A DNA stretch of 64,000 nucleotides from Meyerozyma guilliermondii (lineage: Eukaryota), in contig CP128815.1 in assembly GCA_051546255.1 (NCBI GenBank), positions 1,054,001 through 1,118,000 of the forward strand, read 5' to 3'. Of the stretch, positions 48,589 through 55,700 are shown in pieces. Numbering within the stretch: the stretch's first letter is position 1; each line of letters begins with the position of its first letter. The notes under the pieces were generated by a model. It had not been told where the DNA came from. It saw only the letters and a program-made list of their open reading frames with translations, and searched no databases. A program made the position numbers and the translations under genes.

Positions 48589-50133
48589 ATGAGAGTAAAG
48601 AAACCGACATCCAAAAGGGTGACGACCCGCATGCGGGAAGGTATCAAAAAGAAGGCTGCCGCTCAACACAGAAAAAATAGAAAAGAAGCTAAGAAGGACG
48701 TCACATGGAAGTCGAGAAAGCCAAAAGACCCTGGTATTCCTGCAAGTTTTCCATATAAAGATCGGATTATCAGCGAGTTAGAGGAGAGTAGAAGAGCTGA
48801 TAAAGAGAAGAAAGAACAGCAGAGGCTCCAGAAACAATTGGAGCGCGAGGAGGCTTTGGCTAGAGGCGAAGAGGTAATGGAAGATAACGACGAAGACGAC
48901 ATTGACGATGGTAACGGACTTGGAGCATTGCTTGAATCTGCTCAAAAAGCAGCCAAGGAGTACGATGGAGAACCCGAAGAGACTTCTGATATGGAGGTAT
49001 CTGACGAAGATGTAGAGTACAATATCAGCGAACCAGAAATCGACGAGGATGCCAAAACTGAATGGGAACAATCTCGTAAATTATACGATAAAATCTTCAA
49101 GAATGTTGTTGAGGCTTCCGATGTGGTTCTATATGTCTTGGATGCAAGAGATCCAGAAGCCACCAGATCTCGTAAAGTGGAACAAGCTGTTCTTCAGAAT
49201 CCTGGTAAGCGGTTGATCTTGGTGTTGAACAAGGTTGATCTTATTCCTGCTCCAGTTTTGAAACAATGGCTCAACGTTTTGAAATCTTCCTTCCCAACCG
49301 TGCCGGTGAAAGCATCAATGGGCTCAACCAATTCCACCTCGCACAACAAAGAGCTCACAAATTCGATCACTGCCAAAAACCTTCTTCAAGCATTGAAAAG
49401 CTATGCAGCAAAATCAAATTTGAAGCGTTCAATTGTTGTTGGTGTGATTGGGTACCCCAATGTTGGAAAGTCTTCTATTATCAACGCCTTAACTAACAGA
49501 CACGGAAATAATGCTAAAGCTTGTCCGGTAGGAAATCTCGCAGGTGTAACTACCTCGATGAGAGAAGTCAAAGTTGACAACAAATTAAAGATTTTGGACT
49601 CTCCTGGTATTGTTTTCCCCGACGAGTGGTCTCTGGCTAAAAAACTGAGGTCCAGTACTGAAGCAAAGTTGGCACTTTTATCGGCAATTCCTCCCAAGCA
49701 AATCACCGATCCTTCTTCTGCAGTGAAGCTTCTTTTGAAGAAATTTTCTCAGGATCCTCAAATGGCTGATGGCATGAAAGAGTACTACCAGCTTCCCCCA
49801 TTACCGTCTTCGGACCTTGAAGAGTTTGCAAAGCACTTACTTATTCATGTTGCGAGAACCCGAGGTCGTCTTGGTAGAGGTGGAGTTCCCAATTTGGAAT
49901 CGGCAGCGTTGGCTATTTTAAACGACTGGAGAGATGGTAGACTTATTGGTTGGACCATACCAAAGGCTTCTAAGGCCACTGACACCCCAGCACCTGATGC
50001 CCCAAAAAGTTCGTTGAGAGGAGAAGTTGAACCACCAAAGGTTGCACAAACTACGGTTGTTTCTAGTTGGGCTAAAGAGTTTGATTTGGATGGATTACTC
50101 GGAGACAACTTTGGTCTTGATAACACAGAATAA
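48589..50133 (+). CDS. NUG1: Nuclear 60S-biogenesis circularly permuted GTPase Nug1
   Basis: KDPGIPASFPYK, VLDARDP, NKVD (G4), GYPNVGKSS (G1), DSPG (G3). Confidence 0.96.
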   Translation: MRVKKPTSKRVTTRMREGIKKKAAAQHRKNRKEAKKDVTWKSRKPKDPGIPASFPYKDRIISELEESRRADKEKKEQQRLQKQLEREEALARGEEVMEDNDEDDIDDGNGLGALLESAQKAAKEYDGEPEETSDMEVSDEDVEYNISEPEIDEDAKTEWEQSRKLYDKIFKNVVEASDVVLYVLDARDPEATRSRKVEQAVLQNPGKRLILVLNKVDLIPAPVLKQWLNVLKSSFPTVPVKASMGSTNSTSHNKELTNSITAKNLLQALKSYAAKSNLKRSIVVGVIGYPNVGKSSIINALTNRHGNNAKACPVGNLAGVTTSMREVKVDNKLKILDSPGIVFPDEWSLAKKLRSSTEAKLALLSAIPPKQITDPSSAVKLLLKKFSQDPQMADGMKEYYQLPPLPSSDLEEFAKHLLIHVARTRGRLGRGGVPNLESAALAILNDWRDGRLIGWTIPKASKATDTPAPDAPKSSLRGEVEPPKVAQTTVVSSWAKEFDLDGLLGDNFGLDNTE

Positions 50134-50255
50134 TTAGCATCGGAAAAGAAAGCATAGGAAAATTGTGTAGATATATGTACCATTGCAATTTTCAGTACCG
50201 ATTGGAAATTTCGCAGTCGCAAAAATATTCATTTCTTTGTGCTAGTATCTTGTGG

Positions 50256-51755
50256 ATGGAGGTTGCAAAAAACGACCGCGTCCGAAGTAAAGATGGTTTT
50301 TTAGCAACCGTCAAGTACGTAGGATACCTAACCGATATATGGGGTGAAGAATTGGTTGTGGGGGTGGAATGGGATAAACCAGAAAGAGGAAAAAATAGTG
50401 GAGATATCAAGGGCAAGCATTACTTTCAAACTGAAATTGCTGGTGCTGGATCGTTTCTAAAGCTAAATTCAGGCAAACTAGAGTATGAGCGACTAACATT
50501 TGCTCAAGCTCTATTGAAAAGGTATGGAAAGCAAGTGATTAAAAATGAAACAATTACGTTCGGAACAAAAACAGCGGAGAATTATGGGTTTGACAAACTA
50601 GGTGATTATCAAGCCCATTTTGAAACCCTCTTGTCGGTCTCTTTGGATGCAAGTAACGTGGCAATTCCATTGCTTGAGGGAGAGAAAATTGTTGTTTCAA
50701 GGCTTAAAAATCTCAAGTACTTGGATATAAGTTTTTCGCTCGTCAATCTGTTGAAATTAGTTTGGGAAGTAATTGACTGCATTCCAACGCTTGAGGAGCT
50801 CAGCATAGGCGGTAATAGGTTTTTTGACGTCGAAGATGTATGTTTTTGTGGTGGTTCACCCCATGAACTGTTGAAGATTCTTCGACTCCCAGCATCCAAT
50901 TTTCCGTTCAAGATTCTACCTTTGATATTAAAGAAGTTCCCCAATATCGAAGAAGTTTCACTTGCAGGCAATGGCTATCAAGACTCGGACTTGAAGAGTT
51001 TGAACATCTCGACTTTGAACCGACTTGATTTGTCATTTAACAAGTTAACCACCTTTCCTTCTTCCTGCTCCAACATTCCCTCCATAAACTTGGAAGGAAA
51101 CTTGATATCTTCTTATAAACTAGGAGATATCTCGTCAAAGTCCATCGATTTAAGAGGCAACAAAATAGCCGACTGGGAGTTTTTGGACCAACTCTCAGAA
51201 TCAGCAACGCAGCTTACAGATTTACGCATTAATCGAAATCCTCTCTTTGAGGAAATGTCAATTGATGAGATGACTTTCCTAACAATGGCACGCTTCAAGT
51301 GTGGTCCTAATGGACTTGAAAGTCTCAATGGGTCGCAGCTCAAAAAATCAGAGATTCACGAAGCAGAGTTGTATTTTATATCACAAGTTCGTTCTGGCAG
51401 AGCTCATATAAACCAGGATCGTACTCGCTGGCGAGAAATATCTACGAAGCACAACATAGAAGACTTCACTACGATTACAAAGTCCAACATTAGCGAACTA
51501 GCAAAGAAAAGAATTCAAATTCGTATTCGAAACGGTGAAAATGTGAAAGTCAAACAATTCCTCATTGACAATACAGTTCTTCGCTTGAAAGGAGTCGTTG
51601 CAAGATTATTCCATGTATCCGTTCCCGATTTTGAATTATACTATTTTATAGATGGTCTTGAAACCCAGGAGAAGCAATACCTCGATGATGATATTGCTTT
51701 GCTCGACAGATTCAGTTTTCGGCAAGGTCAAGAGATATTTGTTTCGTTCAGCTGA
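50256..51755 (+). CDS. PAC2: Tubulin folding cofactor E (CAP-Gly, LRR, UBL)
   Basis: GVEWDKPERGKNSG..G..YF CAP-Gly motif, LRRs, AELYFI; ATG at 50256. Confidence 0.9.
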   Translation: MEVAKNDRVRSKDGFLATVKYVGYLTDIWGEELVVGVEWDKPERGKNSGDIKGKHYFQTEIAGAGSFLKLNSGKLEYERLTFAQALLKRYGKQVIKNETITFGTKTAENYGFDKLGDYQAHFETLLSVSLDASNVAIPLLEGEKIVVSRLKNLKYLDISFSLVNLLKLVWEVIDCIPTLEELSIGGNRFFDVEDVCFCGGSPHELLKILRLPASNFPFKILPLILKKFPNIEEVSLAGNGYQDSDLKSLNISTLNRLDLSFNKLTTFPSSCSNIPSINLEGNLISSYKLGDISSKSIDLRGNKIADWEFLDQLSESATQLTDLRINRNPLFEEMSIDEMTFLTMARFKCGPNGLESLNGSQLKKSEIHEAELYFISQVRSGRAHINQDRTRWREISTKHNIEDFTTITKSNISELAKKRIQIRIRNGENVKVKQFLIDNTVLRLKGVVARLFHVSVPDFELYYFIDGLETQEKQYLDDDIALLDRFSFRQGQEIFVSFS

Positions 51756-51761
51756 TTGACA

Positions 51762-52301
51762 TTACTCGGTGAAATCCCATAAACCATCACCAAGATAGTG
51801 AACCAATTCAATACCAATGCCCTTGTTCTTTTCTTTGATTTCATCAGTGCCCATTAACAACTTCCCAATGGCCAAAGCATGTTCTTTTCCCTCAGCATAT
51901 ATCACTACTATGCTGTTCTGTGGTAATGGCTCTTCAGGCAACTTTCCTCCAGCAGAAGTGAGTCCAGGCGACATCACATTGGCTCCAGACAAGACAAACT
52001 TGATTGCTCCACGATCAACTTGTACAGAAGGAAATCCCTGAGGATACTTGTGTACGGTCTTCAAAGTGGGAATGAGATCGTCAAAGTACTGGAATAACAC
52101 CACCTCTCCATCTAAGGCATACAATTGAATTTTGTCTTCACATTTGATCAAAGTTAACTGTGACTTTTTCGGTATGACATTGTCTATGGCAGGCTCCAAC
52201 CCTTCGTACTGGTCAACAAATTTGGCCTTTAAACCTCGTTGAGCAGACGACTTGATATTGGAACGAGAGTGAACATCTTCCTTGGTGAATTTTTTGAACA
52301 T
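51762..52301 (-). CDS. TMA20: PUA-domain translation re-initiation/recycling factor Tma20 (MCT-1)
   Basis: MFKKFTKEDVHSRSNIKSSAQRGLK, VDRGAIKFVLSGANVMSPGLTS, HYLGDGLW; no intron in the coding sequence. Confidence 0.95.
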   Translation of the reverse strand: MFKKFTKEDVHSRSNIKSSAQRGLKAKFVDQYEGLEPAIDNVIPKKSQLTLIKCEDKIQLYALDGEVVLFQYFDDLIPTLKTVHKYPQGFPSVQVDRGAIKFVLSGANVMSPGLTSAGGKLPEEPLPQNSIVVIYAEGKEHALAIGKLLMGTDEIKEKNKGIGIELVHYLGDGLWDFTE

Positions 52302-52384
52302 GATGATCACTTTCTACAAAAGTCGATTTTTCAATTAGGGTCCGAGATTACATAAGCGAATATAGCCCTAGATTTTTATCAACC

Positions 52385-52631
52385 AAATGTCTAGGTTTAT
52401 AATTACAATACCACCATAGGCACGAGCCAGATGTAATCGCACTCAAAGGAAACCGTGTTTGCTTTAGCCCCTTACAAACATTACCCAAATTGAGAAAAGT
52501 TGCATCCAGCTCAAGACCTGAAAAGCGAAAGACAAGCCGAGCGAGGCACGAGGCATCTACATACTACAGTGGAAAAGTTTGTTATTCCTTAAAGACAGGC
52601 AATGTCCTCACTGCAAGTCCCTAAATGGATT
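52385..52631 (-). ncRNA. Candidate box H/ACA snoRNA, snR42-like (3' end approximate)
   Basis: 5' hairpin with upper stem CAGUG-AGGA-CAUUG (52613-52600), pocket strands GGGACU (52621-52616) and CCUGUCU (52599-52593) complementary to 25S rRNA AGACAGG-UU-AGUUUU; H box AUAACA (52585-52580) 14 nt from the pocket; ACA at 52390-52388. Confidence 0.6.
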
Positions 52632-52668
52632 GGTGACCCCTGAAAAAGGTGTCATTCAATGAAAAAAA

Positions 52669-52804
52669 AAGTTCCAAAAATTCCCTGGACGCAGATACCA
52701 CAAGGATACCACATCAAGGAGCTGTCAGGTTGTAGTTTTCAACTAGCAAAAACATGATCTCGGACGAATCCTCACTGATACACGTAATATCCCTGCATAA
52801 AGAT
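52669..52804 (-). ncRNA. SNR14: U4 spliceosomal snRNA
   Basis: Minus strand AUCUUUAUGCAGGG...UAUCAGUGAGGAUUCGUCCGAGAU..UGUUUUUGCUAGUUGAAA...GGGAAUUUUUGGAA closely matches yeast U4 (U6-pairing arms, k-turn stem-loop, Sm site AAUUUUUGG at 52682-52674). Next to TMA20, as in S. cerevisiae. Confidence 0.95.
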
Positions 52805-52829
52805 GAAGAAACAGAGGTGGATGCGATGC

Positions 52830-52860
52830 TTTTATAGCAGCAGACGAGTGCCGGGTAACC
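52830..52860 (-). promoter_or_regulatory. U4 promoter: TATA box and Reb1-like site
   Basis: TATAAAA at 52836-52830 and TTACCCGG at 52858-52851 on the minus strand. Confidence 0.65.
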
Positions 52861-52940
52861 GAAAAGTTTCTGGAACAAAAAATTCAAGATCAGTACACCT
52901 ACACTGAAGGATAAATGCCATTCATGATATTCATTATGTC

Positions 52941-55700
52941 TTAGTCGGGAACAATTACTTCAGATTTGAAATCCTGAACAGTTATTGATTTGTAGTTCGA
53001 GATTAATTTGCGTGATTCTTCGTATTTCATTCTTCTTATGCACTCCAATACTTGTAAGTAGCTGTGGTTTGCAGCCAGAAAGCGAGTGGTAAATTGTTGC
53101 AGTTGGGCAGTAGGATCGTAAAACAGAACCATGTCATTGGCAGACAATTCTGTATAATGTGATGTGTAAAGCTCCAAGCGCTCCTCCTCGTTCAAGAAGC
53201 CTGATTCAGGCGAGAAATTATTGGGGTAAAGTTCTTCCTGCTCCAAATTGAATTTGTCATTGAACGACAGAGTAGTATTTGCAATCTGGAGAAGTTCATC
53301 ATCTAGGCCGTCGTCAAAACTGTCCTCTTCATTATCATCAGTTTCTGGTAAGCTAGTGTGGTGAGACTGTTTGGGATGGTCTTCTTGGTGATCACGAATG
53401 AAATCCTTCAAGGTCGGTTGACGACTCACTTTACGAACGCCAAGCGAAGCAGCATTTCGCAGTTGCCTTGGAAAATAGTCTGGCGCTTTGGTCGAACCTT
53501 CTTTACGGTAAGAAGTCTGTTCCACTTCTGATTCAGAACTTGAATCATCGGGTTGTAGTATTTTCTCCAAGGTGTCGTTTCCCGAACTTGGATACTCCTT
53601 TTCTTCAGTCGCTAACGGCTTGGCTTCTGGATCGACGAGTTGATGAGCAGACCGAAATCCGGTGACCACGTTGTCTGGCATAAAGAATTGTTTCGCAGGC
53701 TTTTTTGTCACCTTAGTGGTGGCTCGTTTCGAAGTTCCTTGAGTCATATATGTGGTAGCAATACGGATAATTTCGTCCTCATCTTCCACCTCTTTAATCT
53801 CATTGTTCTCTTCCGGAATCTCTATGAATTGTCTCTCCACTATTGGTGTGAACGACTGAGGTATTATTCGATTGCGAGGCAACAAAGAGATCATTTTTCC
53901 AGCCATAATGTGTTTTTGAATGTATTCATACCCACCCATGGCTTTGTCAAATTTCAGTTCTTCATTGCCTGAAAATAAAAGTAGGACTTTTCCGTCTCTT
54001 TTTCTTCCTGTTCGACCCATCCGTTGAATATTTTTTATTGGAGAACTGGTTGAGTCATAACATACTATGAGATCGACCTCTCCAATGTCCAAACCCTCTT
54101 CTCCAATAGAGGTAGCAACTAGAACATTAATGTCGCCCAGTCTGAATTTTTTCACAATCTCTTTTTGCACTTTTTGACTCATACCTTTCGCCTGTGCTAC
54201 CTCAGACGTTGACCGAGCAACTAGGGACGAATCTCTTGATTTGCTTTCAGTTTTCTTCTTTTTGGACTTGCCTTTGCTCAAGTAGGCATCTTCGTCGAAC
54301 TTTTCTTTCTCCTTAGCTTGTCCAATAAATATGTGAGGTTTCAATCCGTGTCCAAATTTTTCAATTGCGTTTACAATGTCTAGAGCCGACAGGCGAAACT
54401 CTGTGAATATGATAGCCCTCGATCCTAAGGCATCACAATGCTCACCAAAGACAGCCAACTCGTTCATTAAAACCTCCAACTTAGGATGGTCTGTTCCTTC
54501 CCCATCACTTGAAAGAGCACGGCATTTATCGCGGAGAGCCATGATACTGGGATGAAAATAAAACTGAACGGCGTTCTTGTTCTTTGAGGCTTTTTTCTTA
54601 TGTTTTGTAGTAAACTCTCGGTGCTTTTCAGAGAAATAGTCATAGAAAGCCTTGATACCGTAAATATTAAGTCGCCTGAAACATTGTCCTGCCACATTCA
54701 ACAACTGTAATATAAAATAGTTTGCCCATTTCAATCCTTCTGGAATAGTGGGATCAGCCTGTATGCGCTTCTGAGCTGAAAGCACAAGAAATGCATTGAT
54801 CTTCCTTGGATCAGTCATGTCGTAGATTTTGCGCTGATTTGCAAGCTTCAAGACCGGGGAAATAGCGTCAGCTAGTAACTCTTCGCATTCTCGGATATCT
54901 AGAGAGCTACCCACAGAAACTCTTTCAATTCGTTTTCGCTTCATGTACTTGGAAATGTCTATGCTTTCTTCTGTTCTCACTTCAACCTTCGAAATGTTTA
55001 AATTGTCAATAACTTCCTGAACACCCTCGACGTCTGATGCCGGTGTCGCAGTCAAGGCGAGAATACGATAGGAGGAATTGAACCGGTTCAAGAATTTGGC
55101 AACATTGTTGTATGCATAATTTCCACGAGCTCGGTGCGCTTCATCAATTACAAGCAACACTATCGACTTGGGGTTCACAAGGCCAGAAGCAAGGTCATTT
55201 TCGACCACTTGTGGAGTGGTGAAGAACACCGATTTGGATCTCCATATTTCTCCTCTGTTTCGTCGAGTCTTATCCAAAAGAATTGCCACGCTGGAAGAGG
55301 GAAGTCCCGTTATTCCGCAACACGCCTTGATTTGCTGAGCCACCAATGGCCGCGTGGGAGCCATAAATATGATTTTTGATTGAGGAAACCATCGGTAGAA
55401 ATTGAGCATTACTGTGCTTGCAATGAAGGTTTTACCCAAACCTGTGGGAAGCGCCACCAAAAGATTGTCGTAGAATGCCCTTTGAACAATATTGTACTGG
55501 TAATCACGTACTTCCAAGTTGGTAGGATAAATGTAGGTGGAAAGTGAGTCGTAGTCTATTACATGATGGCAATTATTCGAGCTTTCCTGAGATGTGTTTG
55601 GAGTCTTCTTTGAAGTTGCAGCCGCCTCGGATTCTCGAATCTGGTCTATATCGATATCAAAGTCATCAAAATCAGAACCGTCGGCATCGCCTACGTTCAT
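52941..55700 (-). CDS. MPH1: FANCM-family DEAH DNA helicase
   Basis: RDYQ, LPTGLGKT, DEAH, LTATP, ATSIGEEGLDIG, QRMGRTGR; ACGCG (MCB-like) at 55721. Confidence 0.96.
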   Translation of the reverse strand: MNVGDADGSDFDDFDIDIDQIRESEAAATSKKTPNTSQESSNNCHHVIDYDSLSTYIYPTNLEVRDYQYNIVQRAFYDNLLVALPTGLGKTFIASTVMLNFYRWFPQSKIIFMAPTRPLVAQQIKACCGITGLPSSSVAILLDKTRRNRGEIWRSKSVFFTTPQVVENDLASGLVNPKSIVLLVIDEAHRARGNYAYNNVAKFLNRFNSSYRILALTATPASDVEGVQEVIDNLNISKVEVRTEESIDISKYMKRKRIERVSVGSSLDIRECEELLADAISPVLKLANQRKIYDMTDPRKINAFLVLSAQKRIQADPTIPEGLKWANYFILQLLNVAGQCFRRLNIYGIKAFYDYFSEKHREFTTKHKKKASKNKNAVQFYFHPSIMALRDKCRALSSDGEGTDHPKLEVLMNELAVFGEHCDALGSRAIIFTEFRLSALDIVNAIEKFGHGLKPHIFIGQAKEKEKFDEDAYLSKGKSKKKKTESKSRDSSLVARSTSEVAQAKGMSQKVQKEIVKKFRLGDINVLVATSIGEEGLDIGEVDLIVCYDSTSSPIKNIQRMGRTGRKRDGKVLLLFSGNEELKFDKAMGGYEYIQKHIMAGKMISLLPRNRIIPQSFTPIVERQFIEIPEENNEIKEVEDEDEIIRIATTYMTQGTSKRATTKVTKKPAKQFFMPDNVVTGFRSAHQLVDPEAKPLATEEKEYPSSGNDTLEKILQPDDSSSESEVEQTSYRKEGSTKAPDYFPRQLRNAASLGVRKVSRQPTLKDFIRDHQEDHPKQSHHTSLPETDDNEEDSFDDGLDDELLQIANTTLSFNDKFNLEQEELYPNNFSPESGFLNEEERLELYTSHYTELSANDMVLFYDPTAQLQQFTTRFLAANHSYLQVLECIRRMKYEESRKLISNYKSITVQDFKSEVIVPD

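Follow-up and report, generated by a model that had tools for sequence, protein, structure and literature searches.

In the 64-kb stretch of Meyerozyma guilliermondii DNA analysed here (contig CP128815.1; the whole stretch is called the window), the gene for the spliceosomal U4 small nuclear RNA (snRNA) is followed on the same strand by a gene for a box H/ACA small nucleolar RNA (snoRNA) of the snR36 family, and the spacer between them holds a conserved, covarying hairpin and no recognisable promoter motif. On the strength of this sequence comparison we favour, with a probability of about 0.65, the reading that U4 and snR36 form a dicistronic RNA polymerase II (Pol II) unit, in which capped U4 comes first, uncapped snR36 comes second and one RNase III stem separates them. 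The minus strand of 52200-53100 was inspected, and Rfam was run at gathering thresholds over the whole window, where it gave exactly two matches, U4 and snR36. The proposed unit comprises the following features, in the order of transcription.

52852..52858, minus strand: Reb1-like motif TTACCCG, 54 nucleotides (nt) upstream of the U4 start (motif scan)
52830..52836, minus strand: TATA box TATAAAA, 32 nt upstream of the U4 start (motif scan)
52655..52804, minus strand: U4 spliceosomal snRNA (Rfam RF00015; 96.1 bits, gathering score 46, E 2e-20; model covered in full, 1-138)
52674..52682, minus strand: U4 Sm site AAUUUUUGG, read from the sequence and the alignment
52634..52654, minus strand: small hairpin with a bulged A (4 base pairs (bp), bulge, 4 bp, loop UUUC), from the minimum free energy (MFE) fold
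52589..52624, minus strand: candidate RNase III (Rnt1/Dcr1)-type hairpin of 8 bp, 2x2 internal loop, 6 bp and AGGA tetraloop (folds, -17.3 kcal/mol)
52608-52605, minus strand: the AGGA tetraloop of that hairpin (fold)
52557..52588, minus strand: presumed 5' leader of pre-snR36 after an RNase III cut, for 5' to 3' trimming
52385..52556, minus strand: snR36-family box H/ACA snoRNA with two hairpins (Rfam RF01242; 75.4 bits, gathering score 43, E 3.3e-12; model covered in full, 1-180)
52465-52460, minus strand: snR36 H box AAAGCA, of the form ANANNA, in the hinge (Rfam alignment)
52390-52388, minus strand: snR36 ACA, followed by three nt up to the 3' end of the match at 52385 (Rfam alignment)

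Relatives were drawn from a single metagenome scan with a pattern of two conserved snR36 blocks, which returned 84 loci. The conserved snR36 3'-hairpin block is present in 69 of them, and the other 15 are G+C-rich chance matches. At least 600 nt of upstream sequence accompanies 58 of the 69, and a search by blastn and an nhmmer profile placed U4 upstream of snR36, on the same strand, in seven loci. Three of these (L023, L031 and L036) are near-identical, so that the seven represent five species; counts over six species refer throughout to the window together with L013, the L023 group, L033, L051 and L073. All seven U4-linked loci have the gene order of the window, MPH1-like, U4, snR36, TMA20-like, and their TMA20 identity is 68-78%. 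Both RNAs score above the Rfam gathering score in each of the five representatives, with 57-90 bits for the snR36 orthologues, and no other Rfam family, which might have marked a third small-RNA gene, appears at E up to 1 in any of the five spacers. The gap between the two Rfam matches measures 134, 142, 317, 319 and 331 nt in the relatives as against 98 nt in the window, which is thus the most compact version of the arrangement.

The same tandem can be read from published coordinates. In the tables of Donovan et al., U4 and snR36 lie on one strand with a gap of 329 nt in Candida parapsilosis, 274 nt in C. orthopsilosis, 244 nt in Lodderomyces elongisporus and 336 nt in C. albicans (PMC5033589, supplementary file 3). 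The distance from U4 start to snR36 start and the length of snR36 in the L023 group (471 and 185) and in L073 (480 and 250) equal the values tabulated for C. albicans and C. parapsilosis (PMC5033589), and two of the five metagenome species may be these two. An earlier note on this DNA, made from the sequence, had surmised that the linkage might be on record for C. albicans; the coordinates do record the tandem, but snR36 goes unmentioned in the main text of that paper, and the five polycistronic clusters counted there are others (PMC5033589).

At the upstream end of the unit, the 5' 90 nt of U4, which include the 5' stem-loop and the segments that pair with U6, are 81-91% identical to U4 of the five related species, and the Sm site is identical in all six. 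Because the last stem of the model aligns poorly, the mature 3' end of U4 probably lies nearer 52663. The earlier note had started U4 at 52804 and put a TATA/Reb1-like promoter before it, and the sequence agrees on the start and on the motifs: the Rfam match begins at that position, and TTACCCG and TATAAAA are present at 52858-52852 and 52836-52830. Nor are these motifs confined to the window. L013, L033 and L051 also carry TTACCCG, 64-74 nt before U4, making four species of six, and TATA[AT]A[AT] is found 32-90 nt upstream in five of six, L073 being the species without it; the two motifs occur together upstream of U4 in four of the six.

The spacer between the two Rfam matches is 98 nt long and folds, at minimum free energy, into two hairpins, outside which the spacers of the species do not align. 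The larger one, in which an NGNN ('G2') tetraloop tops about 16 paired positions, has the form described for Rnt1 substrates in PMC4334505; some 14-16 pairs or more are expected in the stem of such a substrate. We sought the most stable NGNN-capped hairpin in each spacer and compared it with those of 150 dinucleotide shuffles. The shuffles of the window spacer averaged -7.1 kcal/mol, and one of the 150 was as stable as the real hairpin with its -17.3 kcal/mol. Such a hairpin was found in the spacers of all six species, with the tetraloops AGGA, CGGA, AGGU, AGGA, UGGA and AGAU and energies of -15.5 to -18.4 kcal/mol, equalled in each species by either none or one of the 150 shuffles.

Covariation was assessed on a plain 24-pair stem in the five hairpins that can be aligned, the window's among them; the L073 hairpin was left out as unalignable. 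Their alignment needs no gaps around the apex, UG-NGGN-CAUU, which is the same in all five. Pairing is seen in 78.3% of stem cells, compared with 42-48% when partners are slid by one to three columns, and both sides change in 16 of the 24 stem pairs. On none of five covariation measures did any of 500 shuffles attain the observed value. This pattern indicates that the structure of the spacer hairpin is maintained by selection. Tetraloop and snR36 5' end are 87, 87 and 89 nt apart in L013, L023 and L051, and 48, 200 and 42 nt apart in the window, L033 and L073.

The smaller hairpin, which reads CCUU-UUUC-AGGG in the window, has counterparts in L013, L033, L051 and L023 of the form ACUUC, a loop of 2 or 3 nt and GAAG(G/A). 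In the first three species these start 19-27 nt after the Sm site, whereas in L023 the distance is 142 nt. The small hairpin could be a 3' terminal stem of U4, or a termination or processing signal.

A motif scan for promoter elements detected no Reb1 motif in any of the six spacers and no TATA[AT]A[AT] in five of them, the window's included. We also counted GUA[AG], which we take to be Nrd1 sites: three were found between U4 and the hairpin, over 725 nt, and 11 downstream of snR36, over 600 nt. As support for the dicistronic reading these counts are weak, and too noisy to carry weight.

If U4 and snR36 do share a precursor, the unit might work as follows. One Pol II promoter, consisting of the Reb1-like site and the TATA box, would drive U4, and transcription would run on through the spacer of about 98 nt into snR36. 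The AGGA-capped stem would then be cut by RNase III, either Rnt1 or Dcr1, the enzyme that does Rnt1's work in Candida. Since Rnt1 cuts 14-16 bp from the tetraloop, we would predict cuts near 52623/52622 and 52589/52588. The upstream product would keep its cap and would be trimmed 3' to 5' by the exosome as far as the Sm core, giving U4. The downstream product would carry a 5' monophosphate and would be trimmed 5' to 3' by Rat1/Xrn1 as far as the assembled H/ACA particle, giving an uncapped snR36.

The second RNA is firmly placed in its family by the full-length RF01242 match, and the RNA at 52556-52385 should be annotated as snR36, not as an snR42-like RNA. In Saccharomyces cerevisiae snR36 guides pseudouridine Psi1187 of 18S ribosomal RNA (rRNA) and snR42 guides Psi2975 of 25S rRNA (PMC8307265, table); by analogy with S. 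cerevisiae snR36, the window snoRNA would guide the residue equivalent to 18S Psi1187. The blocks UUGAGU[AG]CG and GYAAUU are common to the 69 fungal snR36 loci.

Several minor features of snR36 and its surroundings may be recorded here. In the 5' hairpin, conservation of the blocks GCCUCGCUCGG and CUUGAGCUGGA goes far beyond the needs of a plain stem. Directly before the 5' end of snR36, UGUAGU is found in the window (52557-52572, minus strand), L013 and L051. The leader of the window further contains an apparent 7-nt duplication, GUAGUAUGUAGA, which creates the GUAUGU at 52564-52559, 3 nt before snR36, a string present in the window only (one species of six). A further 58 snR36-like loci have the same two 11-nt blocks and the 3'-hairpin blocks and no U4 nearby; they were judged to come from other fungi by their different lower stem, of the GUCU..AGAC type. 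At one locus (L058:3-739) snR36, with 119.7 bits, begins 58 nt past the stop codon of an open reading frame (ORF) of the IF-2B family on the same strand; the 567 nt available upstream contain no U4, and no obvious NGNN hairpin was seen. Judging from this locus, the upstream transcript that carries snR36 may vary from lineage to lineage.

Both halves of the arrangement have relatives in S. cerevisiae, where they are found apart. U4 and snR36 are each listed as known Rnt1p substrates, the former credited to Allmang et al. (1999) and the latter to Chanfreau et al. (1998); snR36, snR43 and snR46 are the H/ACA snoRNAs credited to the 1998 paper in that list (PMC4334505, table S1). The U4 hairpin lies on chromosome V beside TMA20, on the same strand, and snR36 lies on chromosome XV (PMC4334505, tables S2 and S9); a segment that extends from SNR14 into TMA20 shows raised expression in rnt1-delta (PMC4334505, table S9). 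Like the window hairpin, the site in the 3' flank of SNR14 is a G2-type (NGNN) hairpin on the same strand, after U4 and before TMA20. Its apex is GUG-AGUU-CAC where that of the window clade is GUG-NGGN-CAU, and because of this similarity we regard the window hairpin as equivalent to the U4-flank site known from S. cerevisiae. The difference lies in what follows: nothing functional is known between the S. cerevisiae site and TMA20, whereas in the window snR36 starts 32 nt past the foot of the stem.

S. cerevisiae snR36, a member of the same family, is made from a 5'-extended precursor with an AGNN hairpin, and its 5' processing depends on Rnt1p; this hairpin, GGAA-AGUA-UUCC, differs in sequence from the window's, and the gene is on chromosome XV while U4 is on chromosome V. 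Three S. cerevisiae-like loci of the scan (L012, L043 and L047) carry before snR36 a hairpin identical to the published one, its loop being 90 nt away from the start of snR36, in the stand-alone L012 as in the other two. None of the three has a U4 within 2.5 kb of snR36. By eye, TATAAA and a long T run can be seen upstream of the hairpin at the S. cerevisiae-like stand-alone locus.

A number of points weigh against a shared precursor. Cleavage by RNase III can trigger 'torpedo' termination by Rat1, which would oppose expression of a downstream gene. TATA-less promoters exist, and our test for promoters was a motif scan alone. The tetraloops CGGA and UGGA deviate from strict AGNN. One spacer, that of L023, does have a TATAAAA, 181 nt after the U4 start and upstream of its hairpin. 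At 134-331 nt in the relatives and 244-336 nt in the published species, spacers are long enough for a small promoter. The hairpin of the S. cerevisiae U4 flank works with no snoRNA behind it (PMC4334505), so that a hairpin by itself is no proof of a shared transcript. Finally, Donovan et al. list U4 and snR36 as separate 'non-genic exons', outside their five polycistronic clusters (PMC5033589).

The main rival to a dicistronic unit is that U4 and snR36 are independent neighbours, and the like hairpin in S. cerevisiae, the longer spacers, the L023 TATAAAA and the annotation of two separate exons all speak for it. U4 would then end at or near the hairpin, with an RNase III-assisted 3' end and fail-safe termination as in S. 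cerevisiae, and snR36 would be transcribed from a weak, TATA-less promoter of its own in the spacer or in the 3' region of U4; the hairpin may or may not double as the snR36 5' processing site. It is to the window itself that this alternative fits worst. The spacer there offers about 98 nt in all, split by the hairpin into about 40 nt on the U4 side and 32 nt on the snR36 side, and a pre-initiation complex would be forced onto the U4 gene. Across the species, five of the six spacers are without TATA and all six without the Reb1 motif, and because nothing in them aligns besides the two hairpins, no conserved promoter block is visible; the stand-alone S. cerevisiae-like snR36, by contrast, does have its TATAAA and T run upstream of the hairpin. 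We regard independent transcription as unlikely, though it deserves to be kept in view.

The earlier note had argued that the spacer leaves no room for a second promoter. To that argument the comparison adds the tandem and its gene order in five more species, a hairpin in every spacer and the lack of TATA/Reb1 motifs in five spacers of six; the L023 spacer is where it does not extend. The dicistronic idea of that note fared similarly: the idea of one promoter, U4 and a same-strand H/ACA snoRNA behind it draws support from the comparison, and what falls away is the identity of the snoRNA as snR42-like.

We consider it highly improbable that snR36 lies in an intron, either of the TMA20 5' untranslated region or of a noncoding host, and is freed by splicing and debranching. 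The window does present a perfect GUAUGU (52564-52559) 3 nt upstream of snR36, CUAAU and UAG precede the TMA20 ATG, and about half of CTG-clade snoRNAs are intronic, mostly of box C/D, according to PMC5033589. Yet a 5' splice-like GUA[UAC]GU directly before snR36 occurs in one species of six, and none of the six has a branch site of the strict form [UC]ACUAA[CU] in the interval from snR36 to TMA20; on these two counts we rejected the idea. It also conflicts with the listing of snR36 as a 'non-genic exon' in four of four species (PMC5033589, supplementary file 3) and with the statement, in the same paper, that most H/ACA snoRNAs are exonic.

A last alternative, scarcely credible in our judgement, derives from the earlier note, which had read the region downstream of U4 as an snR42-like RNA: the spacer hairpin would be an extra H/ACA guide hairpin for the 25S site of snR42, with an H box 14 nt off, and the whole a composite snoRNA. 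The strings on which this was built are all there. A hairpin lies about 40 nt past U4 with the strands GGGACU and CCUGUCU; CCUGUCU is the exact complement of AGACAGG, the rRNA sequence as quoted in that note, GGGACU could pair with AGUUUU if three G-U pairs are allowed, and AUAACA, about as far away as an H box should be, matches ANANNA. However, in the MFE fold the two supposed pocket strands are the two halves of one helix, the lower stem under the AGGA loop. At those stem positions the other four alignable species carry different, mutually compensating sequences, so that CCUGUCU is found in one species of six; the note had looked to conservation of pocket and H box, and what is seen instead is stem positions covarying with each other, and an AUAACA after the stem in the window only, which contradicts the reading by the standard that the note itself had set. 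The invariant apical UG-NGGN-CA fits recognition of the tetraloop by a protein, not a guide.

The search for families gives the same answer. At E up to 10, an Rfam scan of 52250-53000 listed only U4 and snR36, one lower-scoring, overlapping match of the same clan being omitted; it thus offers an snR36 match of 75.4 bits, no snR42 match and no H/ACA family besides snR36. Moreover, each of the four tabulated CTG-clade genomes has its snR42 annotated elsewhere, at an unlinked locus (PMC5033589). The earlier note had also described one large domain closed by long-range pairing, between CCACUGUAG (52572-52564) and CUAUGGUGG (52419-52411) and ending in the ACA at 52390-52388. These strings too are present, but 52556-52385 forms a canonical two-hairpin snR36, and from the regular H/ACA layout of the match it follows that the 'large paired domain' is an ordinary two-hairpin snoRNA. 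We rejected the long-range helix: the Rfam alignment places its AUGGUG in the 3' hairpin of snR36, in the upper stem, and its upstream partner, judged by eye, is not conserved in the relatives.

For a dicistronic U4-snR36 unit, the individual parts are familiar: an RNase III site in the 3' flank of U4, 5' processing of snR36 and snoRNA polycistrons cut by RNase III. What would be new is the composition, a capped snRNA followed by an H/ACA snoRNA and sharing with it one cleavage stem, of which we found no description. Our literature search, which did not reach several key earlier papers, found no publication describing a U4-snR36 linkage or a shared precursor. The closest analogues are the S. 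cerevisiae polycistrons snR190-U14 and snR72-78, which resemble the proposed unit in having a Pol II transcript, RNase III stems and exonuclease trimming (PMC5934358 and PMC5033589). They differ in holding box C/D snoRNAs only, where the window unit has a capped snRNA first and a box H/ACA RNA second; according to PMC5934358, most H/ACA snoRNAs keep their cap and all Rnt1-cut snoRNA clusters are of box C/D. A linkage of snRNA and snoRNA genes is likewise known from Euglena gracilis, where U3 snoRNA is linked to U5 snRNA, although organism, RNAs and gene copy number all differ from those of the window (PMC2784804).

Nearer to the window, loss of CaDcr1 in C. albicans leads to accumulation of U4 precursors (PMC3579876, reporting Bernstein et al., 2012). 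Clade and gene match those of the window, and an RNase III is required there to remove U4 precursor sequence; the passages of PMC3579876 that deal with it make no mention of snR36 or of a downstream snoRNA. That paper also suggests that AGNN loops are perhaps dispensable in the 3' external transcribed spacer of the Candida clade, whereas an NGNN loop is kept in all six spacers here.

Going beyond the dicistronic reading itself, we offer a tentative extension, possible but on balance doubtful. U4, hairpin and snR36 may be an old dicistronic gene of budding yeasts, in which a single cut by RNase III creates the 3' end of U4 together with the 5' end of snR36 and so ties the output of a part of the spliceosome to that of a part of ribosome maturation. 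The remnants in S. cerevisiae would be the stranded Rnt1 site between SNR14 and TMA20 and the unusual Rnt1-dependent, uncapped status of snR36. Were the dicistronic combination itself real, there would be a simple reason why snR36 is among the few 5'-processed H/ACA snoRNAs of S. cerevisiae. The Dcr1 of the Candida clade would probably gain a substrate and a phenotype, and the U4 'precursors' reported there could include the snoRNA. Recognition of NGNN loops would then still be under selection in a clade in which it was thought perhaps dispensable.

The neighbourhood of the unit, from 48589 to 55700, contains in order a Nug1-like GTPase (plus strand), a CAP-Gly/LRR Pac2-like gene (plus), the TMA20-like gene (minus), snR36 (minus), U4 (minus) and the MPH1-like gene (minus). 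The two genes that flank the tandem are these.

55700-52941, minus strand: MPH1/FANCM-like helicase, a long ORF upstream of U4
51762..52301, minus strand: TMA20-like ORF with Pre-PUA and PUA domains, its ATG 83 nt past the snR36 3' end

The MPH1-like ORF bears on the identity of the host. Its eight CTG codons could be compared in 19 aligned cells (seven related loci, five species), of which seven hold serine, ten another polar or small residue, one isoleucine and one CTG; another leucine codon stands opposite a window CTG codon in none of the 19. Thus the CTG codons behave as serine, which places the host in the CUG-Ser clade. No tRNA genes were found in the 64-kb window.

On the downstream side, the TMA20-like ATG follows the 3' end of snR36 by 83 nt in the window and by 131-474 nt in the relatives. 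The sole TATA-like string before TMA20 (UAUAAAC) sits within the conserved 3' hairpin of snR36 (window 52301-52420, minus strand). Given this position and the short gap of 83 nt, the putative promoter of TMA20 may overlap the snR36 gene.

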